The position numbers and the translations under genes were made by a program. A stretch of 12,167 nucleotides of DNA from a virus (taxonomy: Duplodnaviria > Heunggongvirae > Uroviricota > Caudoviricetes), in the IMG/VR virus record IMGVR_UViG_2617270997_000007, positions 1 to 12,167 of that record; one strand, given 5' to 3'. Within the stretch, counting starts at the first letter, position 1, and every line of letters begins with the position of its first letter. Below, piece by piece: positions 1-12,167 of the stretch. A model generated the notes under the pieces. It searched no databases and was not told the DNA's origin. It saw nothing but the letters and a program-made list of their open reading frames with translations.

Positions 1-31
1 GGTAAATCTTTAAATTCCATCGTCAACCTCA

Positions 32-184
32 TCAGTCGGAGTTTCTTGCTAACCAGCGACGCGCGCCAGCTTCGGTTTTAAACGTTTTGCTTTTGGTATA
101 TGTCATGGCGGTGAATGTGCCGTCCTGGTTGGGGAACACACCACATACCAGAGATTCGCTGTTGCCAAGATCGATAGTATCCAT
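32..184 (-). CDS. Small hypothetical protein (50 aa) downstream of the repressor gene, at the position lambda uses for rex-type accessory genes
   Basis: The track ORF 32..289 begins with TTG and has no Shine-Dalgarno. The in-frame ATG at 184 is preceded on the - strand by GAGG with about 6 nt spacing, giving MDTIDLGNSESLVCGVFPNQDGTF... The longer TTG form cannot be excluded. Confidence 0.35.
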   Translation of the reverse strand: MDTIDLGNSESLVCGVFPNQDGTFTAMTYTKSKTFKTEAGARRWLARNSD

Positions 185-373
185 GCTGACCTCATTACCC
201 CTTAACGCCGGGTAGCGGAACTGTTTGCTGAGAACACCGTGCGGTGTCTTGATGGGTGGTAATTTAGTTTTATCATGAATGTTGGTCAAGCATTTTTAAT
301 GAGAAAACTCAATATTTAATGCAAAATAAAGCCAATACATTGAAATGTAAGGCTTTAAAATTTGTGAAGGGGG

Positions 374-781
374 TTACTGATGTTTGTTACGTTTGCGAGC
401 TTCTAGTAGCTCGGTGAATAGGCGATTAAAATTCTCAACGCGGGCACGGAGTTCGCTGATTTGTGCTTGCTGCTCTGATTTTGGAAGTGCGCGATACAAT
501 CGCAACATCTCCAACTCATCTTCCGATAAGTCTAAGGCGCTGTTGAGTGCTACTGGTGGATCTGGTGTTTTATCCTCGTCACCAAACAGTATCCAAGTTG
601 GTGAACATTGCAATACCTCAGCCAGGCGATGCAAATTTTGCCCGCGCGGGGCTGTATGGTCGCTTTCCCATAGTGAAATTGATGAGCCAGATACGCCAGC
701 GGCTTTGCTTAAATCGTTTTGACTTAAACCAACCTGTTTGCGTCTTTCTCTAATTCGTTGACCTAAAGTTTTCTCGTTCAT
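374..781 (-). CDS. dicA: HTH (XRE-family) prophage repressor, DicA-like, 135 aa, no peptidase S24 domain
   Basis: Complete ORF, MNEKTLGQRIRERRKQVGLSQNDLSKAAG... with the motif LQCSPTWILFGDEDK that I recall from E. coli DicA (also 135 aa). Divergent from a Cro-like gene. Too short to carry a LexA-like autocleavage domain. Confidence 0.8.
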   Translation of the reverse strand: MNEKTLGQRIRERRKQVGLSQNDLSKAAGVSGSSISLWESDHTAPRGQNLHRLAEVLQCSPTWILFGDEDKTPDPPVALNSALDLSEDELEMLRLYRALPKSEQQAQISELRARVENFNRLFTELLEARKRNKHQ

Positions 782-858
782 ATTTAGATATCTTAATAAC
801 CCTTGACTTGAGATTCCTTGAATGATTACTATTGAGAAAACTCAACTTTGGAGGGGTG
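782..858. promoter_or_regulatory. Divergent promoter/operator region between the repressor and Cro-like genes
   Basis: 77-bp intergenic spacer between divergent start codons. TTGACT at 803-808, an 18-bp spacer, then TACTAT at 827-832 could drive the Cro-like gene. GGAGGGG at 850-856 is its ribosome-binding site. Operator half-sites were not resolved by eye. Confidence 0.45.
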
Positions 859-1086
859 ATGTTTAAATCAGACGTAATTAATTTTTATGGGACGAAAGCC
901 AAAGTAGCGAAAGCTGCTGGTGTTGATCCATCTGCTGTTTCTCAATGGGGGGAACTGGTTCCTGAAGGTCGCGCGATGCGCCTGCAAGAGGCATCCGGCG
1001 GGGAACTTCAGTACGACCCCAAAGTTTATGACGAATATCGTAAGGCAAAGCGGGCGGGGCGGTTGAACAATGAAAATCACCCCTGA
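859..1086 (+). CDS. dicC: Cro/DicC-like small DNA-binding protein (75 aa)
   Basis: ATG 859 preceded by GGAGGGG; the track ORF starts further upstream at a TTG (832). Small basic protein divergent from the DicA-like repressor, the classic cro position. Sequence MFKSDVINFYGTKAKVAKAAGVDPSAVSQWGELVPEGRAMRLQEASGGELQYDPKVY... The symbol is from memory of DicC and is not verified. Confidence 0.55.
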   Translation: MFKSDVINFYGTKAKVAKAAGVDPSAVSQWGELVPEGRAMRLQEASGGELQYDPKVYDEYRKAKRAGRLNNENHP

Positions 1087-1621
1087 ACAGGTTTGTGAGG
1101 CTCTGGATGCCTGGGTATGTCGACCAGGAATGACACAGGAGCAAGCGACGATATTAATCACGGAAGCATTCTGGGCTCTGAAAGAACGCCCGAACATCGA
1201 TGTTCAACGCGTCACGTTTAATGATGGCGAGGTTGATCAACGGGCGCTGGGCGTTAACCGGGTGAAGATATTCGAACGCTGGAAAGCTATCGACACCAGG
1301 GATAAGCGGAAAAAATTCACGGCGCTGATTCCGGCAATTATGGAGGCTATCCGAATTAGTGATTTCAGGTTGTATCGTGAGATCAGTGATGGAAAAAGCA
1401 TTACGTACATGATCGCCGGATTAAACAAAGAATATGGCGATGTGGTGGAGTCCGGGCTGCTTTTTGCGGATCCAGCTGTTGTGGAACGTGAGACTGACGA
1501 GCTTATAGAAAAAGCTATTGCTTTCAAGCATGCGTATCGTCAGCAATATCAATATTACTTTGCAGATAAACAAATGTCTGCCAGGGGTTTGTATGAGTAT
1601 CGATGCACTACGATGGGCTAA
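1070..1621 (+). CDS. YdaT-like / CII-position early regulatory protein (183 aa)
   Basis: Complete ORF immediately after the Cro-like gene, overlapping its end by 17 nt. Lambda cII and Rac ydaT occupy this position. The family assignment rests on position and memory, not on a search. Confidence 0.45.
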   Translation: MKITPEQVCEALDAWVCRPGMTQEQATILITEAFWALKERPNIDVQRVTFNDGEVDQRALGVNRVKIFERWKAIDTRDKRKKFTALIPAIMEAIRISDFRLYREISDGKSITYMIAGLNKEYGDVVESGLLFADPAVVERETDELIEKAIAFKHAYRQQYQYYFADKQMSARGLYEYRCTTMG

Positions 1622-2633
1622 AAAGGTGAAAACCGGCAGTTCATCCAGTAAGTCTGTATTGACCTGGCTTGCTGATATGTGCGGTGCCGATTTGTGTGCA
1701 TACCCGTCTGTATCTGCACTGGCAGAAGTAACGGAACTAAACAAAAAGACTGTGCAGGACAGCTTACGACACCTGATGGAGATTGGGTTAATTGTTGATA
1801 CCGGTGAGAGAAAAGGCAGAACAAAGCAAATTGTGGTGTACCGACTTATCGGTGTAGAAGAAAGTGTTGCCGAGCCTGAATACACCCAAAAACGGGAGTC
1901 TTTAAAGGTGGGTAAAATTGGTGCTGTTAATAAAAACAGTACCGAAAATGGTTATGTTTCAGCACAAAACAGACCCAAAAACGGAACTCTTAGCTGCATG
2001 GAAAATAACCAAAGACACCCAAATTTTCCATCAAAGACACCCAAAAACGGATCACGGAACCCAAAGGAACCCAAAGATCTAAACCCCACACATAACGCAC
2101 GCGAGAGTGCTCCGACCAGTGAGCAGGAAGTTTTGTCGTTACAGGCAGCACCCCTTGTATTCCTGGATGGCCTGAGCGAACCCATCGGAAAATTACCGAT
2201 GACCGATAGCTGGTATCCGTCACGGGATTTTCGACGACGGGCTGCGTTGTGGGGGATGGCTTTGCCGGAGACAGAATTTACACCTGCTGAACTTGCCGCC
2301 TTCCGGGACTACTGGGCAGCGGAGGGGAAAGTGTTTACGCAGATTCAGTGGGAGCAGAAATTCGCCCGTCACGTAAATCACGTCAGGGCGCAGGTTAAAC
2401 CAGTCAGCAAGGGGGTAAACCATGCAGCAGCACCAGGTGGCACCGCATCACGGGCAGTTCAGGAAATTCGGGCAGCACGTGAGCAGTGGGAACGTGAAAA
2501 CGGATTTATCAGCGACGGAAACGGTCTGGAAGCTGTGGGAACTCATGGGGGAGGTTTATTCGAACCGCTGGACCCAGAAGAACGGGGCCGCACCTTCGAA
2601 GCTCTGGATTGCACAGATTGGCGCGATGACTGA
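1593..2633 (+). CDS. Phage replication initiation protein (O-like): N-terminal HTH/winged-helix domain, low-complexity linker, C-terminal domain
   Basis: ATG 1593 (MSIDALRWAKK...) chosen over the longer track start at 1518. N-terminus has an HTH-like segment (SVSALAEVTELNKKTVQDSLRHLMEIGLI). The linker is encoded by iteron-like DNA repeats. It lies immediately upstream of a lambda-P-like gene. Confidence 0.6.
   Translation: MSIDALRWAKKVKTGSSSSKSVLTWLADMCGADLCAYPSVSALAEVTELNKKTVQDSLRHLMEIGLIVDTGERKGRTKQIVVYRLIGVEESVAEPEYTQKRESLKVGKIGAVNKNSTENGYVSAQNRPKNGTLSCMENNQRHPNFPSKTPKNGSRNPKEPKDLNPTHNARESAPTSEQEVLSLQAAPLVFLDGLSEPIGKLPMTDSWYPSRDFRRRAALWGMALPETEFTPAELAAFRDYWAAEGKVFTQIQWEQKFARHVNHVRAQVKPVSKGVNHAAAPGGTASRAVQEIRAAREQWERENGFISDGNGLEAVGTHGGGLFEPLDPEERGRTFEALDCTDWRDD
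1966..2078. repeat. Iteron-like direct repeats with an adjacent AT-rich tract inside the O-like gene (candidate replication origin)
   Basis: The 13-mer acccaaaaacgga occurs at 1973-1985 and 2039-2051; caaagacacccaaa at 2010-2023 and 2032-2045; ggaacccaaa in tandem at 2056-2065 and 2066-2075. An AT-rich stretch lies just upstream (1921-1972). Confidence 0.4.
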
Positions 2634-3087
2634 GCAGCAAATCCGACAGGTCTGCCGCCAGTGCATGGACCGCTGCCGGGCGGGTGAAACATGGCCTCCG
2701 GACCTGGCTGAGTTTGTGGCGCTGATTTCAGAAAGCGGGGCCAATCCATTTGGCCTGACGGTGGATGCTGTGATGGAGGAGTACCGCCGCTGGCGTGATG
2801 AGTCCTGGCGATATGACGGAAGCGACAAATATCCGTGGCCTCAGCCTGTGCTGTACCACATCTGCCTCGAAATGCGTACCAGAGGGATTGAGCGCCAGAT
2901 GACGCAGGGTGAGTTAAAACGACTTGCGGAACGGCAACTGACGAAATGGGCAAAGCATGTTGGTAACGGGATGAGTGTTCCGCCAGTGCGACGACAACTG
3001 GAAGGGGCGAAACACCCGCAAGGGCCAACGCCAATTGAACGGCTGAAACAGGAATACGAACGCCGGAAGGCAGCTGGTTTTATTTGA
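2422..3087 (+). CDS. Replication protein P-like (DnaB helicase loader), 221 aa
   Basis: C-terminal two-thirds aligns by eye with lambda P as I remember it: PPDLAEFVALISE to PSPGQFVAWCREE, and YDGSDKYPWPQPVLYHIC...GELKRLAERQL to YPDAESYPWKSNAHYWLV...AELRRKAADEL. ATG 2422 has a strong AGGGGG site 7 nt upstream. Alternative starts are 2545 and 2626 (ATGACTGA overlapping the O-like stop). Confidence 0.7.
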   Translation: MQQHQVAPHHGQFRKFGQHVSSGNVKTDLSATETVWKLWELMGEVYSNRWTQKNGAAPSKLWIAQIGAMTEQQIRQVCRQCMDRCRAGETWPPDLAEFVALISESGANPFGLTVDAVMEEYRRWRDESWRYDGSDKYPWPQPVLYHICLEMRTRGIERQMTQGELKRLAERQLTKWAKHVGNGMSVPPVRRQLEGAKHPQGPTPIERLKQEYERRKAAGFI

Positions 3088-3120
3088 ATCTGAGAAACGA
3101 TTTTGTCGGAGGAAATTTTA

Positions 3121-3891
3121 ATGGAAACCGTATTTGACGCACTGAAAGCAATGGGAAAAGCCACATCGGTAGAACTGGCCGCGCGACTTGATATCAGTCG
3201 TGAAGAGGTTCTCAACGAGCTGTGGGAACTCAAAAGAAATGACGTCGTTGATAAAACTGGTCACACCTGGTTTCTGGCTGGCGAAGGTGAATCCCGGGTA
3301 ACCGAAGAGCGGCCAGTAAAATCTGAAGCACAGGATATGCTGACCGGAGAGGTCGAACAAAAAGTTACCGCAGACATGATGATTGAGTTTATCGGTCAGG
3401 ATGGTGCTAAAACGTGTGAGGAACTGGCGGGTAAGTTCGGCGTCAGTACTCGCAAGGTTGCCTCCACGCTGGCGGTGGTAACCGCAATGGGGCGGCTGGC
3501 ACGCGTTAATCAGAACGGTAAATTTCGTTACTGCATGCCGGGCGATAATTTACCAGCAGAGCCGAAAGCCGCGCTGGTAACGGAAAGTGATGGTAAGGCC
3601 TTTCCTCAGCCAGCAGGTGCTGCGTTACCAGTCCGGGAAGCCGCAACACAGGAAGAAATTAAAACAGAAACTGTGGCGGACATTGTGCAGCCGTTGCCAT
3701 CGTTTACCGAAACGCAAGCAGATGAGCTGATTTTTCCGTCCCTTCGCAGGGCAAACCTGGCGCTGCGCAGGGCGAAAAGTGATGTTCAGAAGTGGGAGCG
3801 AGTCTGCGCCGCGCTGCGGGAGCTGAACAAGCACCGGGATATTGTTCGACAGATTACTGATTCTTCCCGCCGTGTTGTATCGGAAAAGTGA
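3121..3891 (+). CDS. Hypothetical protein with two winged-helix-like segments (256 aa)
   Basis: ATG 3121 with GGAGG 8 nt upstream; the track ORF starts at TTG 3103. Two HTH-like stretches: [26 protein letters not shown] and [31 protein letters not shown]. First gene of a coupled operon. Confidence 0.6.
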
Positions 3892-3906
3892 TTGCCGGAG
3901 GCGCTT

Positions 3907-4299
3907 ATGGCAAAAGTATTTACACCAGAAGAGCGGGAAGAAGTGAAGGCGCGCATTGTGGAATTCGTGCGCCTGAGCGGACGAGAAACTTTTCGACAAC
4001 TGGCAGATAAAACGGGTGTCAGTAAGACCGCTATTCGTCGTTTATCTGGTGCGCTTGCGGCCAGTGGTGATGTCTGGCTCTCTGGTTGCGGGGTATTTCC
4101 ATCAGAGCAGGCGTATCGCGTATGGCGTAAGACACCGGAGAAGGCTGCTGACCCGACACTGATTCGAAAGTTACCTGACGGAGAAATACGTCGTTACAAC
4201 AGACGGCAGAACATAATTTTTCGTGAGTGCCGCCAGAGCGAAGTTATGCAGCGTGTGCTGGCGTTCTATCGGGGAAACTTTCAGGAGGTGATGGAGTGA
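3907..4299 (+). CDS. Hypothetical protein with an HTH-like segment (130 aa)
   Basis: ATG 3907 with GGAGG 5 nt upstream; the track ORF starts at TTG 3892. Contains FRQLADKTGVSKTAIRRL. Its stop TGA 4297-4299 overlaps the next gene's GTG start. Confidence 0.55.
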   Translation: MAKVFTPEEREEVKARIVEFVRLSGRETFRQLADKTGVSKTAIRRLSGALAASGDVWLSGCGVFPSEQAYRVWRKTPEKAADPTLIRKLPDGEIRRYNRRQNIIFRECRQSEVMQRVLAFYRGNFQEVME

Positions 4300-4592
4300 G
4301 GGTCAGAGTTTATATTGCCGGTCCAATGACGGGATATGAAAATTTCAACCGTGAGGCGTTTCACAAGGCGGAAGAGGAACTGAAACGGGAAGGGCATACC
4401 GTCTTAAACCCGGCAGTACTTCCGGACGGGCTGACACAGCCGCACTACATGGATATTTGCATGGCAATGATTCGTTGTGTGGATGCGATTTACATGCTGA
4501 ATGGCTGGCAGCGGTCAGCGGGCGCTAAGGCAGAGCTGGCACTGGCGGAGAAACTGGGGCATGCAGTGATTTATCAGGAGGTGGCTCAATGA
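4296..4592 (+). CDS. DUF4406 / nucleoside 2-deoxyribosyltransferase-like small protein (98 aa)
   Basis: GTG 4296 with AGGAGG 7 nt upstream and a GTGA start/stop overlap. Motif VYIAGPMTGYENFN, then a conserved acidic region, as in the deoxyribosyltransferase/Rcl-like fold. Assignment is from motif memory. Confidence 0.55.
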   Translation: MRVRVYIAGPMTGYENFNREAFHKAEEELKREGHTVLNPAVLPDGLTQPHYMDICMAMIRCVDAIYMLNGWQRSAGAKAELALAEKLGHAVIYQEVAQ

Positions 4593-5056
4593 GAGAGGTT
4601 AACTATGAGGCGCTTCGTGAGGCAGCACAAAACTATCAGTCGACGCTGGCGTGGTATCAGGCTATCCCGGACAGCCCAAATGCTGAACGGGATTGTGATG
4701 CGGCTCTTGCTGCATTTAAGCGTCACATCCGTCATCGGGAAGCGGATATTATCGCTGATTTGCTGGATGGACTGGAAGAAGCAAAATCACAACTCAAAGA
4801 GCAGCGTGAGTATTACGAAGGCGTTATCTCTGATGGGAGCAAGCGTATTGCTGAACTGGAAGCGCGGGAAGTTCAATTACCGACTCGCTACGACCTTCGA
4901 TATGGACACCCGATAAATGCAGATGAGCGACATGTCATGATACCTAAAGAAAATGGCAGTTGGCTTTACCTGATTGACCTAGAACACGCATTACGCGTCT
5001 CTGGCATTCGCATCAAAGGAGAGGAGCATGGAAATAAAACCCAGAGGATGAGTTAA
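4589..5056 (+). CDS. Hypothetical phage protein with a predicted coiled-coil region (155 aa)
   Basis: ATG 4589 overlaps the upstream stop (ATGA), with GGAGG upstream. No recognisable catalytic motif. Confidence 0.6.
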   Translation: MREVNYEALREAAQNYQSTLAWYQAIPDSPNAERDCDAALAAFKRHIRHREADIIADLLDGLEEAKSQLKEQREYYEGVISDGSKRIAELEAREVQLPTRYDLRYGHPINADERHVMIPKENGSWLYLIDLEHALRVSGIRIKGEEHGNKTQRMS

Positions 5057-5086
5057 GCAATATCGTTTTATTTCCGGTAAAAGAGG

Positions 5087-5385
5087 ATGACCCTCGTAAT
5101 CAGGTTAATTTTCTTTATGAGCCATCGGAAAGACCATATTGTCATCACGCCTCTGTCCGGGTTGACGAAAAAGAGCGTCAGGTCCGCTGTAAAATCTGCG
5201 GTGCAGTTGTGGAGCCATTTGACTGGATGCTCTCTGTGGCGAAAAGAGAAACCAGACTGGCAGATGATGTAAGGCACTTGCGCCAGGAGGAGCGGGAAAG
5301 GCGAAAAAATATAGAAAAGCTAATTCAGATTGAGCGTAACGCGAAAGCGCGGATACGCAGGGCGACAAAATCCAGAACTGAATAA
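5087..5385 (+). pseudogene. Zinc-ribbon/coiled-coil ORF with a disrupted start: open frame 5038-5385 has no ATG/GTG/TTG before 5209. Possible frameshift at the T-run 5109-5116 or non-canonical initiation
   Basis: Frame-1 translation is protein-like over about 115 codons: ...NQVNFLYEPSERPYCHHASVRVDEKERQVRCKICGAVVEPFDWMLSVAKRETRLADDVRHLRQEERERRKNIEKLIQIERNAKARIRRATKSRTE*. It fills an otherwise empty 420-bp gap in a tightly packed operon. The only upstream ATG (5087) is in another frame. Confidence 0.3.
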
Positions 5386-5454
5386 TTAAATTTAGCTCTG
5401 TTAAAAATTTAATCCTTAACCGGAGGGATTTCTGCACCCTCAGAACATCAGGAG

Positions 5455-5472
5455 GCCGCCCGAAAGGGCGGT
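5455..5472 (+). promoter_or_regulatory. GC-rich hairpin with GAAA loop between the Shine-Dalgarno AGGAGG (5450-5455) and the ATG at 5479
   Basis: Stem ccgccc (5456-5461), loop gaaa, stem gggcgg (5466-5471), plus a possible G-U closing pair 5455/5472. No U-tract follows, so it is not a typical terminator. Folding would bring the SD from 23 nt to about 7 nt from the start codon. Confidence 0.35.
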
Positions 5473-5478
5473 AGTTAA

Positions 5479-5661
5479 ATGCGAAAGTTTAAAATAATTA
5501 TTGAAACGGGAATAGCCGGTGGAGATTTCGAGGATGAATTCGAAGTGGATGATGATGCGACGCCTGATGAAATACATGACGAAGCAAAAGATATTTTCTT
5601 TAACTACTGCAATTACTCATATCACGAAATAAAAGACGAAGAGGAAGAGCAAAATGGCTGA
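5479..5661 (+). CDS. Small, highly acidic protein (60 aa)
   Basis: MRKFKIIIETGIAGGDFEDEFEVDDDATPDEIHDEAKDIFFNYCNYSYHEIKDEEEEQNG: about 40% Asp/Glu. Complete ORF in the coupled operon. Confidence 0.55.
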   Translation: MRKFKIIIETGIAGGDFEDEFEVDDDATPDEIHDEAKDIFFNYCNYSYHEIKDEEEEQNG

Positions 5662-5830
5662 TTTTGGTTCAACTAAATACAACGTCAGTTTTGAAGCATG
5701 GCATGAACTGTTAATGGACTATGCAGAGTTACGTGGTGGCAGTGCTGCTGATGCTGAAGCATGGCGTGATGATTATGAAGCAGGAAAAACTCCGGTCGAA
5801 GCATATTGTGATGAGTGGGGCGATGAATGA
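5654..5830 (+). CDS. Small acidic protein (58 aa), not in the supplied ORF track
   Basis: ATG 5654 with GAGGAAG 6 nt upstream, overlapping the previous stop. Translation MADFGSTKYNVSFEAWHELLMDYAELRGGSAADAEAWRDDYEAGKTPVEAYCDEWGDE*. Its stop TGA 5828-5830 overlaps the next ATG at 5827 (ATGA). Confidence 0.45.
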   Translation: MADFGSTKYNVSFEAWHELLMDYAELRGGSAADAEAWRDDYEAGKTPVEAYCDEWGDE

Positions 5831-6342
5831 GCGAGATTAATTATCAGGAAGGGCATGAAACGGCAGGGCAGGCAAAACCAGTTGCATGGCGATATCGCTA
5901 CGTGAAAAAAGACGTTACAGACTTTCAGGGGAAGCCGTGGGCTGGTGACTGGAAATATGTACCGACAAAAGAGGATTGTAACGACAGGCCGAACTATGAA
6001 ATTCAGGCCTTATTCATCGGCCCGCCAGTCCCGGTGACATCAGAAGGACTGGTTAAAGCCGTGCGCTTTTATGAACAGGTAAAGCGTGAGAATCCGCCAG
6101 TCGAAACAGGAGCATGGAAGGATGCTGTTGACTGGGTGCTCAGAGAGGCCTGCTGCGCTGCCATTCTGGGTAAAGCCGACAATCCACCAGCATCCGGCAA
6201 TCAGGTTAGCGAATTAACAATGTGGGTTAAACGACTGGTCAGTCAACTGAAAAAAGCTCAGCCGGACTGCAAATTACCGGAGAAGGCGATGGATTACCTG
6301 AAACGAAATGGACTGATAAGCGTGGAGGATGTTTTACGATGA
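5827..6342 (+). CDS. Hypothetical phage protein (171 aa), last gene of the coupled operon
   Basis: Complete ORF with ATGA coupling to the upstream small ORF. No recognisable motif. Confidence 0.6.
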   Translation: MSEINYQEGHETAGQAKPVAWRYRYVKKDVTDFQGKPWAGDWKYVPTKEDCNDRPNYEIQALFIGPPVPVTSEGLVKAVRFYEQVKRENPPVETGAWKDAVDWVLREACCAAILGKADNPPASGNQVSELTMWVKRLVSQLKKAQPDCKLPEKAMDYLKRNGLISVEDVLR

Positions 6343-6462
6343 ATATTTAGACTAAAGAGTTTGTAACGCTATGTAAGTGATTTTTTCTGGTTTAGATATT
6401 TATATGTTCGGCCAAATTGAGGTGTGTTTAAATGTTATTGCACATTGATTGTAGGGGGAATA

Positions 6463-6642
6463 ATGAAAAACGCATTGCAGTTTTTGTTTGTTGCGTTCTG
6501 GTTGTTCGCATCATGTATGCCCATCATCTTCACAGCAAGGTATATGGAAAAAATTGATGTTTTGATATTAATGTTTGGACATATAAATGCCCTTTTTTTA
6601 GGGGTGTTCATGGCGGTCATGTGCATTGAATACTGGCGGTAA
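6463..6642 (+). CDS. Small hydrophobic membrane protein (59 aa, two predicted TM helices) in an AT-rich moron
   Basis: ATG 6463 with GGGGGA just upstream; the track ORF starts at GTG 6424. Sequence MKNALQFLFVAFWLFASCMPIIFTARYMEKIDVLILMFGHINALFLGVFMAVMCIEYWR. The surrounding region 6343-6660 is visibly AT-rich compared with its neighbours. Confidence 0.45.
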   Translation: MKNALQFLFVAFWLFASCMPIIFTARYMEKIDVLILMFGHINALFLGVFMAVMCIEYWR

Positions 6643-6784
6643 ATACAGCGAACGCCATTGGTTTAGTTGGATATTTACTGTGCCGGACAAAAACGGTTTG
6701 CGGGGAAATCTTAGTTAAGTAGAATAACTGCGGGTGCTTGAGGCTATCTGTCTCAGGCATGAACACCAAAAGGCAGATAGAGAA

Positions 6785-6851
6785 AAGCCCCAGTTAACAT
6801 TACGCGTCCTGCAAGACGCTTAACATTAATCTGAGGCCATATCTATGCGAC
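6785..6851 (-). ncRNA. sok: Sok-like antisense RNA of the hok locus (approximate position)
   Basis: Expected by analogy with hok/sok loci. A candidate - strand promoter has TTGACC (complement of 6882-6887), an 18-bp spacer and TAATCT (complement of 6858-6863), directing transcription leftward across the hok leader. The 3' end is not defined. Confidence 0.25.
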
Positions 6852-6904
6852 ACATAGAGATTAGCCTCTTACGGACCGAAAGGTCAAGGAGAAGCAGGCT
6901 ATGA
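6845..6904 (+). CDS. Mok-like short upstream ORF (19 codons) coupled to hok
   Basis: ATG 6845, translation MRHIEISLLRTERSRRSRL*, with stop TGA 6902-6904 overlapping the hok ATG (ATGA). Too short to judge on composition alone. Confidence 0.25.
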   Translation: MRHIEISLLRTERSRRSRL

Positions 6905-7056
6905 AGCAGCAAAAGGCGATGTTAATCGCCCTGATCGTCATCTGTTTAACCGTCATAGTGACGGCACTGGTAACGAGGAAAGACCTCTGCGAGGTACGAA
7001 TCCGAACCGGCCAGACGGAGGTCGCTGTCTTCACAGCTTACGAACCTGAGGAGTAA
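6901..7056 (+). CDS. hokD: Hok/Gef-family type I toxin (51 aa), HokD/RelF-like
   Basis: Translation MKQQKAMLIALIVICLTVIVTALVTRKDLCEVRIRTGQTEVAVFTAYEPEE*, which matches Hok-family toxins and, as far as I recall, E. coli HokD closely. AAGGAG lies 9 nt upstream. Absent from the ORF track because it is under 60 aa. Confidence 0.85.
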   Translation: MKQQKAMLIALIVICLTVIVTALVTRKDLCEVRIRTGQTEVAVFTAYEPEE

Positions 7057-7126
7057 GAGACCCGGCGAGGGAGAAATCCCTCGCCACCTCTGATGTGGCA
7101 GGCATTCTCAACGCACCCGCACTTAA

Positions 7127-7150
7127 CCCGCTTCGGCGGGTTTTTGTTTT
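7127..7150 (+). terminator. Rho-independent terminator at the 3' end of the hok transcript
   Basis: Stem cccgc / loop ttcg / stem gcggg followed by tttttgttttt. A separate perfect 9-bp hairpin (ggcgaggga-gaaa-tccctcgcc, 7064-7085) lies just after the hok stop and may be the 3' fold-back element of hok mRNA. Confidence 0.75.
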
Positions 7151-7272
7151 TATTTTCAACGCATTTGAAGTTCTGGACGGTGCCGGAATAGAATCAAAAA
7201 TACTTAAGTAGCGCGCAGGGATAAGAGGGATGGTCCCTTAAAGGGGAGAGCTAATTATCCGGAAGGATTCTG

Positions 7273-7524
7273 ATGATGAACATCGAAGAACTGCGTAAAA
7301 TTTTTTGTGAAGATGGCCTCTATGCTGTGTGCGTTGAAAATGGAAATATTGTTAGTCATTACCGCATTGTGTGTTTGCAAAAAAATGGGGCTGCGTTAAT
7401 TAATTTTGTGGATGCCCGAGTGACGGACGGATTTATCTTGCGCGACGGTGAGTTTGTCACTTCATTACAGGTATTGAAAGAGATCGGAATAAAAGCTGGC
7501 TTTTCTGCTTTTTCAGAAGAATAA
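7273..7524 (+). CDS. rem: Rem-like small protein (83 aa)
   Basis: Complete ORF with GGAAGGA 5 nt upstream of ATGATG. Same size and position (between hok and the DUF968 gene) as rem in the K-12 Qin prophage. Symbol is from synteny and size, not sequence recall. Confidence 0.4.
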   Translation: MMNIEELRKIFCEDGLYAVCVENGNIVSHYRIVCLQKNGAALINFVDARVTDGFILRDGEFVTSLQVLKEIGIKAGFSAFSEE

Positions 7525-7590
7525 ACTCATCTACAATCTTGCGCGGGGCTGAACTCCCGCTGAGTAACACCGTGCCACCGGAGAAAACCG

Positions 7591-7869
7591 ATGGCACGCA
7601 ACGCAAAATATTACAAACATGATAATTCGACCGTTCTTGCCCACACGCACGAGCGGTATTCTCACGCATTTAAGTCAGACTGGTACCAGCATCCCCCATG
7701 CACTGAAGAACAGGCCGAATGGCTCATTCAGTGTTACCGCAGGCGCGGATGCGAGGTTAAAAAAGCCCTTAGCCTCGACTACCGTCACTGGATAATCTCC
7801 GTCAGGCTTCCTTACTCCGAACGCCCACCGCGTCTGTCCCGCACATTCCAGCAACGCATCTGGAGGTAA
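7591..7869 (+). CDS. Hypothetical phage protein (92 aa)
   Basis: Complete ORF with GGAG 8 nt upstream. Its stop lies 1 nt before the GTG start of the DUF968 gene. Confidence 0.55.
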   Translation: MARNAKYYKHDNSTVLAHTHERYSHAFKSDWYQHPPCTEEQAEWLIQCYRRRGCEVKKALSLDYRHWIISVRLPYSERPPRLSRTFQQRIWR

Positions 7870-7870
7870 C

Positions 7871-8917
7871 GTGCGGGTATTACTTCGACCTGTTCTGGTA
7901 CCGGAACTCGGGCTGGTGATCGTTAAGCCGGGCCGTGAATCCATGCCGGTATTCCACAATACCCGGGTACTGGTGGAGCCGGAACCGAAAAGCATGCGTA
8001 ATCTGCCGTCCGGGGTCGTTCCTGCCGTTCGCCAGCCGCTGGCGGAGGATAAATCATTACTGCCATTTTTCAGCGACGAACGAGTGATTCGTGCTGCTGG
8101 TGGCGCTGGCGCATTGTCTGACTGGTTACTGCGCCATGTTAAATCCTGCCAGTGGCCACACGGCGATTATCACCACAGTGAAACCGTCATTCACCGTTAT
8201 GGTACCGGCGCAATGGTGTTGTGCTGGCACTGCGACAACCAGCTGCGCGACCAGACCTCCGAATCACTCGGGCAACTTGCTCACCAAAACCTGTCTGCAT
8301 GGATGATTGACGTCATACGCCATGCAATGAATGGCTCGCAGGAACGGGAATTATCGCTGGCTGAATTATCCTGGTGGGCGGTCCGCAATCAGGTGGCGGA
8401 CGCGCTACCGGAAGCGGTATTACGTCGTTCGCTGGGGTTGCGTGCGGAAAAAATCCGCTCAATGTACCGTGAAAGCGACATCGTACCGGGAGAGCAGACC
8501 GCCACCAGCATACTGAAGCAGCGCACAAAAAATCTTGCGCCGCTGCCTCACGCCCACCAGCAAAACCCGCCACAGGAAGAGACGGTGGTCAGCATTGCCG
8601 TTGATCCTGAGTCTCCGGAATCTTTCATGAAACGACCTAAACGTCGCCGCTGGGTTAACGAGAAATACACACGCTGGGTGAAGACACAGCCGTGTGCGTG
8701 TTGTGGTAAGCCAGCCGACGATCCCCATCACCTGATTGGTCATGGTCAGGGCGGAATGGGGACAAAATCTCACGATATTTTCACGCTACCGCTGTGTCGG
8801 GAGCATCACAACGAGCTTCATGCGGATCCTCTGGCGTTCGAAGAAAAGCATGGTTCTCAGGTTGATTTAATTTTTCGTTTTCTTGATCACGCCTTTGCAA
8901 CTGGCGTGCTTGGGTAA
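7871..8917 (+). CDS. ydfU: DUF968-family protein (YdfU-like, 348 aa) with a C-terminal HNH-like zinc-finger motif
   Basis: GTG 7871 with GGAGG upstream. C-terminus CACCGKPADDPHHLIGHGQGGMGTKSHDIFTLPLCREHHNELH has the CxxC...HH...H...C..HH..H pattern of HNH nucleases. Size and position match Qin YdfU from memory. Confidence 0.6.
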   Translation: MRVLLRPVLVPELGLVIVKPGRESMPVFHNTRVLVEPEPKSMRNLPSGVVPAVRQPLAEDKSLLPFFSDERVIRAAGGAGALSDWLLRHVKSCQWPHGDYHHSETVIHRYGTGAMVLCWHCDNQLRDQTSESLGQLAHQNLSAWMIDVIRHAMNGSQERELSLAELSWWAVRNQVADALPEAVLRRSLGLRAEKIRSMYRESDIVPGEQTATSILKQRTKNLAPLPHAHQQNPPQEETVVSIAVDPESPESFMKRPKRRRWVNEKYTRWVKTQPCACCGKPADDPHHLIGHGQGGMGTKSHDIFTLPLCREHHNELHADPLAFEEKHGSQVDLIFRFLDHAFATGVLG

Positions 8918-8929
8918 AAGAGGTGACTG

Positions 8930-9304
8930 ATGCTCATAGATTTGGTTTTACCTTACCCGCCGACGGTGAACACTTACTGGCGACGCCGTGGCAGCACATA
9001 TTTTATCTCGGAGGAGGGAAAGCGTTATCGCCGGGCTGTGGCGCTTATTGTTTGCCAGCAGCGGCTGAAATTAAGCCTGTCCGGAAGGCTGGCGATAAAG
9101 GTGATTGCAGAGCCACCGGATAAGCGTCGTCGCGACCTGGACAATATCCTGAAAGCACCGCTGGATGCGCTGACGCATGCGGGAGTGTTAATGGACGATG
9201 AGCAGTTTGATGAAATCAATATCGTTCGTGGTCAGCCAGTATCTGGTGGACGTCTGGGGGTGAAGATTTACCCCATAATGCATGAAGAGCAGGTCAAAAA
9301 ATGA
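8930..9304 (+). CDS. rusA: RusA crossover-junction endodeoxyribonuclease (Holliday junction resolvase), 124 aa
   Basis: Motifs PYPPTVNTYWRRRG, RRRDLDNILKAPLDALT and MDDEQ line up with the RusA signature (WPPSNNRYY, RRRDLDN, DD.Q). AGAGGTGA upstream. Confidence 0.85.
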   Translation: MLIDLVLPYPPTVNTYWRRRGSTYFISEEGKRYRRAVALIVCQQRLKLSLSGRLAIKVIAEPPDKRRRDLDNILKAPLDALTHAGVLMDDEQFDEINIVRGQPVSGGRLGVKIYPIMHEEQVKK

Positions 9305-10122
9305 AACTGGAAGATTTACCGAAATACTACTCCCCAAAATCCCCTGGCCTGACCGATGCATCGGCCTCAACGTCAAAAGATGCGCTGAGTATCACTGATG
9401 TGATGGCCGCGCAGGGCATGACACAGAATCGGGCTGAGATGGGTTTTTCTGCGTTCCTGGGGAAAATGGGCATCAGTATGAATGACAGGGTGCGGGCAAC
9501 AGAATTACTGGCAGATTATGCACTCAGTCGGTGCGATCGTGTGGCGGCGTTGAGAAAACTTCCGGCAGAAATAAAACCGGTAGTGATGCGCATTATGGCT
9601 TCGTACGCTTTTGAGGATTATGCCCGCAGCGCAGCGAGTAAAAAGCAGTGCCCTTGTTGCTATGGGGAAAAATTTATTGAAAGCATAGTTTTTACAAACA
9701 AGGTCCAGTATCCGGATGGTAAGCCGCCGGTATGGGCAAAGTGTACGAAAGGTGTGTATCCGTCTTACTGGGAAGAATGGAAAAAAGTCAGGGAGGTGGT
9801 AAAAGTTGCCTGTCCGGAGTGTGGCGGAAAGGGTGAGGTTTCCACCGCCTGTAAGGATTGCCGTGGGCGTGGTGTCGCCATTCACCGTGAAGAGTCGGTA
9901 AAACGTGGTATGCCTGTTATCAGAGACTGCCAGCGTTGTGGTGGTCGTGGCTATGAAAGACTACCATCAACGGAGGCATTTAATGCTATATGCGAGGTGA
10001 CAAACCAGATAACACGCGCGTCATGGGAAAAAACAGTTAAGAAATTCTATGATGCGCTGGTGACCCGGTTTGATATTGAAGAAGCATGGGCTGAGCGGCA
10101 GTTAAAAAAGGTAACTAGGTAA
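9301..10122 (+). CDS. Late-gene antitermination protein Q-like (273 aa) with CxxC zinc fingers
   Basis: ATG 9301 overlaps the rusA stop (ATGA). Cys-rich C-terminal region CPECGGKGEVSTACKDCRGRG...CQRCGGRGY. Sits directly upstream of a lambda-type PR', the canonical Q position. Confidence 0.6.
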   Translation: MKLEDLPKYYSPKSPGLTDASASTSKDALSITDVMAAQGMTQNRAEMGFSAFLGKMGISMNDRVRATELLADYALSRCDRVAALRKLPAEIKPVVMRIMASYAFEDYARSAASKKQCPCCYGEKFIESIVFTNKVQYPDGKPPVWAKCTKGVYPSYWEEWKKVREVVKVACPECGGKGEVSTACKDCRGRGVAIHREESVKRGMPVIRDCQRCGGRGYERLPSTEAFNAICEVTNQITRASWEKTVKKFYDALVTRFDIEEAWAERQLKKVTR

Positions 10123-10128
10123 CAAGGT

Positions 10129-10156
10129 TGATTTTTCCGGAATCTGTGGTAAATTC
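10129..10156 (+). promoter_or_regulatory. Late promoter PR' (lambda-type), with the downstream pause-region motif
   Basis: -35 TTGATT (10129-10134), 16-bp spacer containing TGg, -10 TAAATT (10151-10156), then cgtcataacgATGGG. Lambda PR' as I recall it is TTGACT ... TAAATT tgactcaacgATGGG, so the -10 and the aacgATGGG block are shared. Confidence 0.6.
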
Positions 10157-10204
10157 GTCATAACGATGGGCCTTTTATGCCTGACGTTAGAAGAGTTTCT
10201 ACAA

Positions 10205-10229
10205 CCCGCCGCCGAGCGGGTTTTTTATT
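10205..10229 (+). terminator. Rho-independent terminator about 50-65 nt downstream of PR' (tR'-like)
   Basis: Stem cccgc (10206-10210), loop cgccga, stem gcggg (10217-10221), then tttttt. Confidence 0.6.
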
Positions 10230-10264
10230 GCGGAATTAATTACGGACCGTTATTATTCTGCTCC

Positions 10265-10340
10265 CGGCCCTTTAGCTCAGTGGTGAGAGCGAGCGACTCA
10301 TAATCGCCAGGTCGCTGGTTCAAATCCAGCAAGGGCCACC
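10265..10340 (+). tRNA. ileZ: tRNA-Ile2 (anticodon CAU, lysidine type; formally also readable as Met), 76 nt with encoded CCA
   Basis: Cloverleaf folded by hand: acceptor ggccctt/aagggcc, D-stem gctc/gagc, anticodon loop ctCATaa, T-arm gctgg-ttcaaat-ccagc, discriminator A, CCA. Near-identical to E. coli ileX as recalled. Confidence 0.85.
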
Positions 10341-10347
10341 ATCACAT

Positions 10348-10424
10348 ACCGCCATTAGCTCATCAGGAAAGAGCGCCAGCCTTCGAAGCTGGTTGCGCGG
10401 AGTTCGGGTCCCCGAAGGCGGTCC
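10348..10424 (+). tRNA. argN: tRNA-Arg (anticodon UCG), 77 nt, with non-canonical features
   Basis: Anticodon arm ccagc-ctTCGaa-gctgg is perfect and D-stem gctc/gagc is good. The acceptor stem has one A-A mismatch at pair 6, the T-stem has one A-C mismatch, and the T-loop is ttcgggt (G where the conserved A58 is expected). CCA is encoded. Confidence 0.6.
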
Positions 10425-10437
10425 ATTATCTGTATCC

Positions 10438-10514
10438 TGCGTTGTTAGCTCAGCCGGACAGAGCAATTGCCTTCTAAGCAATCGGTCACTGGTTCGAATC
10501 CAGTACAACGCGCC
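10438..10514 (+). tRNA. argO: tRNA-Arg (anticodon UCU), 77 nt with encoded CCA
   Basis: Clean cloverleaf: acceptor gcgttgt/acaacgc, D-stem gctc/gagc, anticodon arm attgc-ctTCTaa-gcaat, T-arm actgg-ttcgaat-ccagt, discriminator G, CCA. Confidence 0.85.
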
Positions 10515-10529
10515 ACACTTATTTTCCCT

Positions 10530-10552
10530 GGCTCGCTTTTGCGGGCTTTTTT
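10530..10552 (+). terminator. Rho-independent terminator after the tRNA cluster
   Basis: Stem ggctcgc (with one G-U pair), loop tttt, stem gcgggc, followed by a 7-nt T-run. Confidence 0.6.
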
Positions 10553-10557
10553 TTAAA

Positions 10558-10770
10558 TGTCTCACAATTCAGGCGGTTGACTGTTGTCTGGTTTGCGGGG
10601 AGTTTGTTAAAAGAAACTGGCATGGTGAATCCCCCTGTGCGGAGGGGCAATCAGCGAGTAGGTATATGGGATAATCGCGGATTCAGGTGCTGGTACTGAA
10701 TTCACCGGGAGGCACCCGGCACCATGCAATGGCACATAGCGCCACTCTCCAGCCCCTCTCCGGAGGGGCT
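10558..10770 (+). repeat. Structured repeat module A: promoter-like -35, two conserved GC hairpins and a terminal terminator hairpin (candidate small RNA or leader cassette)
   Basis: Shares ordered blocks with module B: ctcacaattcag; TTGACT (10574-10579); tttgttaaaa; hairpin cccct-gtgcgg-agggg (10629-10644); hairpin ccggg-aggca-cccgg (10702-10716) followed by ATG; terminator gcccctc-tccg-gaggggc (10749-10766) plus tttt. Confidence 0.6.
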
Positions 10771-10964
10771 TTTCTGTGCCGGATACATCACAGTTTCTGG
10801 AACCTTAGGTACTACAGTATCAGTCAGGGTGCTATATTTTCAGATGTGATGAAAGCCTGTCAGCAGGCAGGGCGTATCGGAAATGACCCAGTAGAGAAAA
10901 CGTTGACTCAGATACCGGTGCTGAGTTACCGGGAAACCGGCATCACATGACCGCTATCCTTCCA

Positions 10965-10991
10965 GGCCCATCCGCTCCGGTGGGCCTTTTT
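10965..10991 (+). terminator. Rho-independent terminator between the two repeat modules
   Basis: Stem ggccca (10965-10970), 10-nt loop, stem tgggcc (10981-10986), then ttttt. It closes a short unit containing a possible 33-codon ORF at 10849-10950, which has no convincing Shine-Dalgarno and is not called. Confidence 0.45.
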
Positions 10992-11028
10992 ACTGCAGAA
11001 AACAGGTTCCCCGTTAAATGCTATGTTG

Positions 11029-11262
11029 CTCACAATTCAGTAAGTTGACAGTTGCCTGTCAGACTGGGCATTTGTTAAAAAAATTTCGCATGGTGAATCC
11101 CCCTGAGCGGAGGGGCGACTGGTGACGGTATAATCTCTGATTATCAAAACGAGAATGACGCGGGTTTAGTGGCACCGGGCTGAACTCACCGGGAGGCACC
11201 CGGCACCATGTGCATGATGATACAGATACGCGGCTTTAGCCCCTCTCCGGAGGGGCTTTCTT
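11029..11262 (+). repeat. Structured repeat module B, paralogous to module A
   Basis: Same blocks in the same order: ctcacaattcag (11029-11040); TTGACA (11045-11050); tttgttaaaa; hairpin ccccctgagcggagggg; a TATAAT at 11129-11134; caccgggaggcacccggcaccATG; terminator gcccctc-tccg-gaggggc (11239-11256) plus T-tract. It has about 20 bp of insertion relative to A. Confidence 0.6.
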
Positions 11263-11267
11263 ATGGA

Positions 11268-11297
11268 CAAAAAAAGCCCGCGCTGGGAGACGCGGGC
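11268..11297 (-). terminator. Minus-strand intrinsic terminator immediately after module B
   Basis: On the + strand an A7 tract (11269-11275) precedes the hairpin gcccgcg-ctgggaga-cgcgggc (11276-11297). Read on the - strand this is hairpin plus U-tract. No convincing - strand gene lies upstream of it. Confidence 0.4.
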
Positions 11298-11490
11298 GGC
11301 AAGGAATAAACAATAAAACGTGAAGTAATATTTCAGCTGGCGAATAATACCCCATAGTAATCACTCTGCGCAACTGCGCGGTCTTTTTCGAATTGCGGGC
11401 TGTAGTCTCCCTTCTGCCATTGTCCTGTAACTTCCGGACTTCAGCCTGCTCCTTATCTGACTCACAACATTATCCCGCCCGGGAGGATTC

Positions 11491-11679
11491 ATGGCATTTA
11501 AACACTATGACGTGGTCAGGGCGGCATCGCCGTCAGACCTTGCGAAACGACTGACACAAAAACTGAAGGAGGGCTGGCAGCCGTTTGGTAGTCCGGTGGC
11601 CATAACCCCTTATACCCTGATGCAGGCGATTGCAGCAGAAGGTGATGTGGTGGTCAGTGGTGCAACTGAGCCGGAGTGA
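11491..11679 (+). CDS. DUF1737-like small protein (62 aa), commonly found just upstream of lambdoid lysis cassettes
   Basis: Complete ORF with GGGAGG 5 nt upstream. Translation [62 protein letters not shown]. Family assignment is from memory of position and size. Confidence 0.55.
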   Translation: MAFKHYDVVRAASPSDLAKRLTQKLKEGWQPFGSPVAITPYTLMQAIAAEGDVVVSGATEPE

Positions 11680-11837
11680 TACTACGTCATCGTACTGGCC
11701 CGGCATTCCAGGCCATAAAAGACGGTCTGGCAGTGGGACTAAATGCACTGACGCTGACGGATATTACCAAAAATGCAACGTATGGCGTTGAGATAGAAAG
11801 TCTGGTGCTGGAGATAAATGCACCGGCATCATCATAA
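11676..11837 (+). CDS. Possible small ORF (54 codons, GTG start) coupled to the DUF1737-like gene; not in the ORF track
   Basis: GTG 11676-11678 overlaps the upstream TGA (GTGA). Translation [53 protein letters not shown]. The upstream ribosome-binding site is weak. Confidence 0.3.
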
Positions 11838-11921
11838 AAAGTGAGCCAGTCAAATGGAAGGTATCGTTAAACTCACCGGTAGTGTCAGTGGGTCGTCTGA
11901 GACGCCTGCATGAGTTATCAG

Positions 11922-11950
11922 AGCCATCAGTACTTAACTGGTGGCTTTTT
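11922..11950 (+). terminator. Rho-independent terminator 28 nt upstream of the holin start
   Basis: Stem gccatcag (11922-11929), loop tacttaa, stem ctggtggc (one G-U pair), followed by ttttttatt. Confidence 0.55.
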
Positions 11951-11977
11951 TATTGTTGTCAGCTTCCGGATAACGGG

Positions 11978-12167
11978 AGACGGGGTATGTACCAGATGGA
12001 AAAAATCACAACAGGTGTGTCATACACCACGTCAGCGGTGGGAACGGGCTACTGGTTCCTGCAGTTGCTGGACAGGGTTTCCCCGTCTCAGTGGGCGGCA
12101 ATAGGCGTGCTGGGGAGTCTGCTGTTTGGGCTGCTGACATATCTGACTAACCTGTATTTCAAAATCA
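11978..12167 (+). CDS. S: Class II holin (phage 21 S21-type pinholin), 3' end cut off by the window
   Basis: Translation [60 protein letters not shown]... resembles S21 as recalled ([63 protein letters not shown]...). Two in-frame starts at codons 1 and 4 (ATG 11978 and 11987). No stop before position 12167. Confidence 0.8.

Follow-up and report, generated by a model that had tools for sequence, protein, structure and literature searches.

The described systems that lie closest to the locus examined here are lambdoid morons, class II holins, type I toxins of the Hok/Gef kind, and small bacterial membrane proteins that regulate larger membrane proteins. The moron concept is said to originate with Hendrix and colleagues, and HK97 gp15, lambda bor, and lambda lom are reportedly among its examples. 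Class II holins and pinholins (e.g., S68 of phage 21) consist of approximately 60 to 70 residues that form two helices, with probably cytoplasmic ends and a small-xxx-small (glycine-zipper-like) repeat in helix 2. In this study, we describe ORF59, an open reading frame (ORF) for a protein of 59 residues in a 12,167-nucleotide (nt) stretch of tailed-phage DNA (positions 1 to 12,167 of IMG/VR record IMGVR_UViG_2617270997_000007; hereafter the window, i.e., the whole stretch that was analyzed). The window corresponds to the rightward early region of an Escherichia coli prophage (lambdoid, Rac/Qin type), and ORF59 has the same orientation as the genes from cro through Q (i.e., the early-right operon). 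The best explanation as a whole, to which we assign a probability of approximately 0.6, is that ORF59 is the gene for a two-helix inner-membrane protein, carried by a 346-bp exchangeable cassette the slot of which is fixed, with the last replication/ead gene on its left and the -35 element of the hok promoter on its right. As a joint claim, it is highly probable that positions 6463 to 6642 are a genuine gene and that its product is a small membrane protein. The features of the cassette are as follows.

6344-6689, plus strand: exchangeable cassette carrying ORF59 (346 bp)
6343-6462, plus strand: AT-rich untranslated leader (120 nt, 30.8% GC)
6454-6459, plus strand: Shine-Dalgarno sequence GGGGGA, 3 nt before the ATG
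6463-6642, plus strand: ORF59 coding sequence, 59 residues with two predicted helices (residues 2 to 24 and 30 to 58); ATG at 6463, stop codon ending at 6642
6593-6599, plus strand: run of seven T residues (T7) inside ORF59, the start point of most frameshifted database variants
6690-6725, plus strand: right junction AAAAACGGTTTGCGGGG, then the hok promoter

The product of ORF59 is MKNALQFLFVAFWLFASCMPIIFTARYMEKIDVLILMFGHINALFLGVFMAVMCIEYWR. An earlier note on this DNA, made from its letters alone, had reported a local drop in GC content and a single short ORF with its own GGGGGA ribosome-binding site. The drop is real (35.8% GC for 6343 to 6660 versus 49.7% for the whole window, within the lowest 0.7% of all 318-nt windows), and the ribosome-binding site is present at 6454 to 6459; in approximately half of the related copies, an A at 6456 converts it into the canonical AGGAGGA. 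The ORF is not strictly single, as a 41-residue ORF on the plus strand and a 63-residue ORF on the minus strand overlap it, but the 59-residue frame is the only one that is conserved. By codon position, the GC content of ORF59 is 0.34 (GC1), 0.29 (GC2), and 0.53 (GC3), and GC3 resembles that of the neighboring genes. ORF59 is AT-rich because its product is rich in Phe, Ile, Leu, and Met, which acts through codon positions 1 and 2. Its low GC content does not indicate a foreign composition, and only the 120-nt leader, which has 14 variable sites among related copies, is intrinsically AT-rich.

Copies of the locus are widespread in E. coli. A 421-nt query (6300 to 6720) matched 1,641 of 5,426 complete genomes by megablast, and a 388-nt query (6343 to 6730) matched 1,585 of them by blastn. 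Depending on the search mode and query span, the number of carriers of the window type varied from 1,552 to 1,641, with a near-full-length copy in approximately 1,550 genomes. Identities were 95 to 100% throughout the blastn search, and megablast added 27 records at 90 to 95%. When copies were sampled by means of an upstream noncoding 20-mer anchor, ORF59 was intact in 114 of 116; because the copies are nearly identical, this intactness carries little weight by itself.

Comparison with a distant relative is the basis on which we regard ORF59 as a real gene. A HMMER search of 1.84 billion representative proteins recovered, beyond close copies, a 59-residue paralog (P0042; 44% identity, E = 4.8e-10). 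By profile search, the paralog cluster (P0047) is common in E. coli, and its DNA is present in 1,045 of the 5,426 complete genomes. The two 180-nt coding regions align at 59% nucleotide identity with no indel; their flanks need 7 to 12 gap columns. The nonsynonymous divergence (dN) is 0.46 and the synonymous divergence (dS) approximately 2, which gives a dN/dS of 0.23. Frame +1 has 27 identical positions out of 60, 14 codons that differ without changing the residue, and a BLOSUM sum of 155, versus 15 to 18 identities and BLOSUM sums of 0 to 64 in the five other frames, all of which are interrupted by stops in one or both sequences. A simulation of neutral divergence gave 16.8 ± 2.5 identical residues compared with the 26 observed (P = 1.5e-4), and the frame stayed open in only 3% of runs (P = 0.03). 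It is the conservation of this frame alone, with no indels and a dN/dS of approximately 0.23, that argues for a real gene. The earlier note had asked whether the ORF is conserved in related prophages; its frame is, and the intact copies counted above agree.

The start codon was placed at the ATG at 6463. Many GenBank entries have a 72-residue version that starts with GTG at 6424, a candidate that we rejected. The extension is polymorphic, with an indel in the window lineage, and the paralog has no in-frame ATG, GTG, or TTG between the preceding stop codon and its own start; the ATG is therefore the start of ORF59.

The paralog is located at the Rac attachment site, in a Rac-type prophage remnant of approximately 1.5 kb between ttcA and uspF/ompN (L208, 829 to 1140; L244, approximately 7100 to 7500, strain CEA601S, between ttcA and uspF). 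Its neighbors in the remnant are fragments of an integrase gene and of a DUF1627 gene, and downstream of it is the 3' half of a hok gene that has lost its promoter -10 element, leader, and N-terminal half. The ORF59 family was found only in Rac/Qin-type lambdoid prophages of Escherichia/Shigella. A scan of genome contigs returned Shigella and E. coli only, the exhaustive search of representative proteins yielded no relatives beyond close copies and the paralog, and a plasmid collection contained four ORF59 matches, all at least 97% identical and one labeled Klebsiella oxytoca. K-12 MG1655 lacks ORF59. In that strain, the homology of the hokD locus to the window begins only at 6887, 3' of relBE, and the sok leader is absent.

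The very hydrophobic two-helix product proposed in the earlier note was supported by two lines of evidence. The grand average of hydropathy of the protein is 1.20, with hydrophobic segments at approximately residues 4 to 25 and 33 to 55 separated by RYMEKID, and hydropathy windows of at least 2.0 cover residues 7 to 23 and 33 to 55. An AlphaFold2 model built from a nine-sequence alignment has helices at residues 2 to 24 and 30 to 58 (mean predicted local distance difference test score, 72). The protein thus has what is expected of a two-pass membrane protein, i.e., two hydrophobic helices of spanning length joined by a short polar loop. Residues invariant in both lineages include S17, C18, P20, I21, I22, and T24 in helix 1; F38, G39, N42, A43, and L44 in helix 2; and E56, W58, and R59 at the C terminus. 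G47 is nearly invariant (Val in one paralog variant, P0049). ORF59 and the paralog share the motifs SCxPII, LMFGHxNAL, and IExWR, and helix 2 of ORF59 contains a small-xxx-small repeat, G39-A43-G47. Repeats of this kind mediate helix packing.

Database searches did not link the protein to a described family. Scans of ORF59 and the paralog against Pfam, PHROGs, NCBIfam, and PADLOC gave nothing significant; the best profile match was TIGR03647 with the paralog (E = 0.031), which is under its cutoff and was attributed to composition. ORF59 itself had no Pfam or PADLOC match at E values up to 1 and no match in a PDB profile search, and Foldseek against BFVD returned only generic viral helical hairpins, none at an E value of ≤0.001. 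Databases name the protein "hypothetical protein" or, occasionally, "membrane protein," and a literature search for the peptide returned no papers. Judged by its sequence, ORF59 appears to be a new family of a familiar kind, conserved but never characterized. In the inner membrane, the protein would form a helical hairpin whose N and C termini face the cytoplasm, leaving an acidic or neutral loop on the outer side. Self-association, or binding to another membrane protein, may occur through G39-A43-G47 and the intrahelical polar residues S17, C18, T24, and N42, and the protein would act at the membrane during the lytic program. Any specific biological role, the candidates being Hok modulation, exclusion, and toxicity, is a doubtful assignment at best. 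The superinfection exclusion, toxin, and holin-like functions raised in the earlier note are guesses that neither family nor fold searches backed with a match.

A different maturation of the same protein is possible, although we do not favor it. ORF59 might be a lipoprotein precursor in which residues 1 to 17 form a signal peptide that is cleaved before Cys18, leaving a lipidated peptide of 42 residues with one C-terminal helix. A regular expression of the PROSITE lipobox rule fits both paralogs (K/R in the first seven residues, an uncharged stretch, and L-F-A-S-C or I-V-I-S-C, in which Cys is residue 18), and S17 and C18 are invariant while their neighbors vary. However, a small residue followed by Cys can arise by chance in a hydrophobic helix, and the segment after the Cys (MPIIFTA) is hydrophobic and extends helix 1 in the model, an unusual feature in a mature lipoprotein. 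As it bears on maturation, this alternative could be combined with each of the roles under discussion.

The cassette is delimited by sharp junctions. On the left, it begins directly after the stop codon of the upstream gene (…TTTTACGATGA, also printed …GATGTTTTACGATGA; the stop region ACGATGA ends at 6343), and on the right, the junction AAAAACGGTTTGCGGG overlaps the -35 element of hok. In many relatives, the same junctions enclose a 78-nt cassette instead, with a hydrophobic ORF of 27 residues that starts in the ATGA overlap. In 37 of 80 loci, hok comes after the upstream gene (PHROG 660) with no ORF59 in between, and what precedes the ORF59 cassette varies among prophages, with at least three upstream contexts. 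ORF59 therefore occupies a place that in relatives is either empty or filled by something else, and the identical junctions around different contents indicate that the cassette character is real. The horizontal insertion proposed in the earlier note is supported in this form, i.e., by an exchangeable cassette with sharp junctions; the compositional argument offered for it carries less weight, given a GC3 of 0.53 and a leader that is the only AT-rich part.

The same note had called the locus a moron, and in the strict sense of that term this was not confirmed. No sigma-70-like promoter was found upstream of 6463 in strict or lenient consensus scans, the hok promoter being the only one in the scanned interval, and a scan of 6100 to 7300 for intrinsic terminators detected only that of hok, with none directly after ORF59. 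Because neither a promoter nor a terminator of its own was found, read-through is the simplest model of expression. ORF59 would be transcribed within the rightward early (pR-type) operon on induction or infection and not autonomously in the lysogen. We consider this read-through from the early-right operon the likelier mode, and a weak or alternative promoter, with autonomous expression, may nevertheless exist. The classical moron alternative holds that the lysogen expresses ORF59 autonomously, to the advantage of the host or prophage, e.g., by superinfection exclusion at the inner membrane (compare HK97 gp15 and T4 Imm). The cassette behavior between conserved flanks, the AT-rich 120-nt leader (unusual among tightly packed early genes), and the small membrane product are all as expected from it, as is the persistence of an intact paralog, with a plausible extended -10 element, in a remnant of approximately 1.5 kb that has no pR operon. 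The absence of a promoter of acceptable geometry before the window copy and of a terminator after it, the normal GC3, and the lack of a match to any exclusion or defense family in PADLOC, PHROGs, or Pfam make this alternative unlikely.

Several observations weigh against the view of ORF59 as a maintained gene read from the early-right operon. RefSeq/PGAP never calls ORF59 and likewise leaves the paralog region without annotation. An ATG-started ORF of at least 59 codons occurred in 19% of dinucleotide shuffles of 6343 to 6731 (P = 0.19), and the length of ORF59 is therefore no evidence for coding by itself. The promoter scans were consensus based, and the plausible extended -10 element of the paralog (TGaCATAAT) lies approximately 75 nt before its start. 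Substitutions in ORF59 within the window lineage comprise eight nonsynonymous changes (A16V, M28I, I31V, M37I, H40Y, L44I, V52G, and M53T) and no synonymous ones, and the paralog lineage (L208, 829 to 1008) has four and none, i.e., 12 versus 0 in both lineages together. With an expected synonymous fraction of 0.20 to 0.32, the chance of finding no synonymous change among twelve is approximately 0.07 to 0.01. Frameshifted alleles are also present, mostly at the T7 run (e.g., ...INALFFRGVHGGHVH; P0020, P0023, and P0025), and are rare by contig count, and one diverged copy (L008), located in a decaying prophage, is frameshifted. Many of the T7-run variants come from read-level assemblies and are possibly sequencing errors.

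Nonsynonymous differences are known to be in excess between sequences that have only just diverged, a time-dependence effect. The 12:0 pattern could reflect this effect, relaxed constraint, or diversifying selection, and the data favor none of the three. If constraint has been lost, ORF59 would be a decaying or presently unconstrained gene, once functional, the copies of which now drift neutrally in prophages and remnants. The 12 nonsynonymous changes without a synonymous one, the frameshifted alleles in databases and in L008, and the gene fragments around the paralog are consistent with such decay, and at 95 to 100% identity the intactness of the copies has little statistical power. On the other side, 98% of the unbiased copies are intact, the Shine-Dalgarno sequence is kept or improved, the density of polymorphism is lower in ORF59 (4.4%) than in its flanks (9 to 12%), and the substitutions are mainly conservative hydrophobic exchanges; the 12:0 pattern, moreover, could also be diversifying selection. 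We regard decay as rather improbable and retain the reading of ORF59 as a functional membrane protein gene in an exchangeable cassette.

That cassette has a neighbor that the earlier note overlooked: ORF59 is invariably adjoined by a hok/sok locus. The relevant features, with the flanking genes, are listed below.

374-781, minus strand: cI-like repressor gene
5827-6342, plus strand: upstream early-operon gene (171 residues, PHROG 660, function not assigned)
6698-6725, plus strand: hok promoter, with -35 TTGCGG (6698-6703) and -10 TAGAAT (6720-6725) at a spacing of 16
6732-6903, plus strand: hok mRNA leader and sok antisense region (Rfam RF01794, 106.7 bits)
6901-7056, plus strand: hok toxin coding sequence, 51 residues (Pfam HOK_GEF, 1.2e-23; the identical protein is HokD in RefSeq)
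7125-7142, plus strand: intrinsic terminator hairpin of the hok transcript

From position 832, the plus strand encodes cro, YdaT-like, replication O/P-like, DUF1627, DUF977, DUF4406, and ead-like genes; past 6342, the order is the ORF59 region, the hok/sok locus, rem, DUF968, rusA, and Q. A near-identical chromosome (strain 7/2, NZ_CP023820) has the same layout in RefSeq, in which nothing is called between the PHROG-660 gene and hokD. A cluster of tRNA-Met, tRNA-Arg(tcg), and tRNA-Arg(tct) genes and two tandem copies of the STnc100 small RNA family lie 3' of the Q antiterminator gene (10266 to 10515, 10591 to 10781, and 11059 to 11268). At 7065 to 7146, i.e., the hok 3' untranslated region and terminator, the model of the Hfq-binding small RNA isrK gave a subthreshold score (26.6 bits versus a gathering threshold of 50); this match is probably merely the terminator hairpin.

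All 104 haplotype-sampled copies of ORF59 that were followed continue into the sok leader. Among 97 copies, hok is at the expected distance in 73 (72 of these intact), and 23 loci are interrupted in the hok start codon itself by a large insertion that begins right after GGCTAT (window positions of approximately 6887 to 6903). In the two loci with examined annotation, L003 and L004 (PhiR42_1), a transposase gene follows this insertion. Since the paralog also precedes a hok remnant, two lineages that are separated by a saturated dS both adjoin hok. The converse fails: ORF59 was present in only 15 of 78 and 15 of 111 hok loci in two samples (L245 to L404 and L406 onward). Other small hydrophobic ORFs fill the slot, defined as the 200 nt upstream of the hok mRNA start (window equivalent, 6530 to 6731), in a further 33 of 78 and 59 of 111 loci, and approximately one-third of the loci have none. 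Taken together, a small hydrophobic ORF occupies the slot in 62% and 67% of hok loci versus a background of 9%, the frequency with which such ORFs end no more than 200 nt from positions drawn at random in these loci. This enrichment rests on three or four independent cassettes and is suggestive.

The slot ORFs are ORF59, a 27-residue type (MTWPEALTTVGIAMAVALVVYSICRWG), a type of approximately 30 residues (MLVLKCALAIAAVMAIYCLAVVLMDHLSD), and a 49-residue relative of the latter; none of the four has a family match. The types beyond ORF59 are unrelated to it, and only those of 30 and 49 residues (t3 and t4) are related to each other. Homology of ORF59 with the other slot ORFs or with Hok found no support (shuffle P ≥ 0.04); the P value of 0.04 was that for Hok and is uncorrected across 12 comparisons. 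Among the sequences compared, copies of the 27-residue ORF differ by five synonymous and two nonsynonymous changes, a pattern by which this ORF looks coding. Some hok loci (L299 and L262) have a perfect 22-bp palindrome, CGATATGGGAATTCCCATATCG, approximately 45 to 70 nt before the hok mRNA start, just before the AAAACGG junction.

This arrangement raises the possibility that the slot ORFs are partners of Hok. A prophage hokW-sokW locus is switched on by induction and doubles phage release (PMC8621323; the retrieved text of that article does not discuss upstream ORFs), and a protein that modulates Hok at the membrane would be plausible in such a setting. Acting, e.g., as antiholin-like timers or as immunity functions, ORF59 and the other slot ORFs might adjust the activity of Hok there and so tune the Hok-assisted early lysis and phage release that have been reported for a prophage hok/sok locus. 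In its broadest form, the idea would give hok/sok a third component, i.e., small membrane proteins that have the slot to themselves (ORF59 and members of two or more unrelated families of 27 to 49 residues) and that delay, localize, or neutralize Hok. The position of both ancient ORF59 lineages immediately 5' of hok, the occupancy of the slot by three unrelated families at 62% and 67% over a background of 9%, and the induction of hokW-sokW are in line with it. Nevertheless, approximately one-third of hok loci do without a slot ORF, and identical Hok proteins accompany every cassette type with no covariation, which argues against a specific, coevolving partnership. ORF59 is also intact where hok has been cut off by the insertion (23 of 97 loci) or deleted (the paralog, 1,045 genomes), the cassettes represent few independent events, and the interaction is hypothetical. 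We consider both the partnership and a reserved third position quite improbable. If they were true, Hok-assisted lysis would be timed to phage development, and ORF59 would be one allele of a modular "Hok modulator" position and not an independent moron.

Finally, that the region is a regulatory or noncoding RNA spacer, or that its minus-strand ORF is the real gene, is extremely improbable: RefSeq annotates nothing here and a minus-strand coding sequence is annotated in two INPHARED phage records and in PhiR42_1, but the minus-strand frames have two to eight stops in the paralog and low similarity, for which the minus-strand ORF was rejected as a gene, and the region has no Rfam match, no significant RNA structure, and no minus-strand promoter or terminator. 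Specifically, the Rfam scan gave no match inside 6343 to 6660, folding around the ORF59 start gave a z score of 0.37, and the leader (6343 to 6462) lacks significant RNA structure. The minus-strand coding sequence lies across ORF59 (window positions 6435 to 6626; L004, 3066 to 3317; L005, 3063 to 3314) in three public phage records, including PhiR42_1, and is named "hornerin" in two of the three and hypothetical protein otherwise. From the comparison with the paralog, this annotation is very likely an error.

ORF59 is carried by approximately 29% of complete E. coli genomes and the paralog by a further 19%, and RefSeq annotates neither. The locus is a clean case of how standard pipelines overlook a small membrane protein despite its conservation. 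That it always lies beside hok/sok, and that other tiny hydrophobic ORFs recur in the slot, could bear on how prophage Hok is controlled at induction; if it is unrelated to Hok, ORF59 is one more phage accessory membrane protein.

Compared with the systems introduced above, ORF59 resembles the lambdoid morons (HK97 gp15, lambda bor, and lom) in being an extra cassette between shared flanks, with a leader of different composition and a small membrane-associated product. Unlike them, it has no recognizable promoter or terminator of its own, its low GC content stems from hydrophobic codons, and it has no sequence relation to a characterized moron product. With the class II holins and pinholins, it shares the size, the two helices, the probably cytoplasmic ends, and the small-xxx-small repeat in helix 2. 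It differs from holins in having no Pfam or PHROG holin match and in its location in the early region between the replication/ead genes and hok rather than beside an endolysin gene; a near-identical record (L001) contains a separate class II holin gene and a lysozyme gene beyond Q, outside the window. Like the Hok/Gef type I toxins, ORF59 is small, very hydrophobic, and prophage borne, and it adjoins hok/sok. It has two helices and not one, however, with no match to HOK_GEF (PF01848) and a similarity to Hok that is marginal and not convincing, and neither an Rfam match nor a minus-strand promoter or terminator indicative of a type I antitoxin was found within 6343 to 6660. In contrast to the small bacterial membrane proteins that regulate larger ones, ORF59 is phage borne and taxonomically restricted, with no homology detected; its size, hydrophobicity, and conserved intrahelical polar residues are similar to theirs. 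The closest relative of ORF59 is the P0047 paralog, which lies in a remnant of approximately 1.5 kb with a 5'-deleted hok and is present in 1,045 of the 5,426 genomes versus 1,552 to 1,641, and which has the same length, 44% identity, the same motifs, and the same place upstream of hok.

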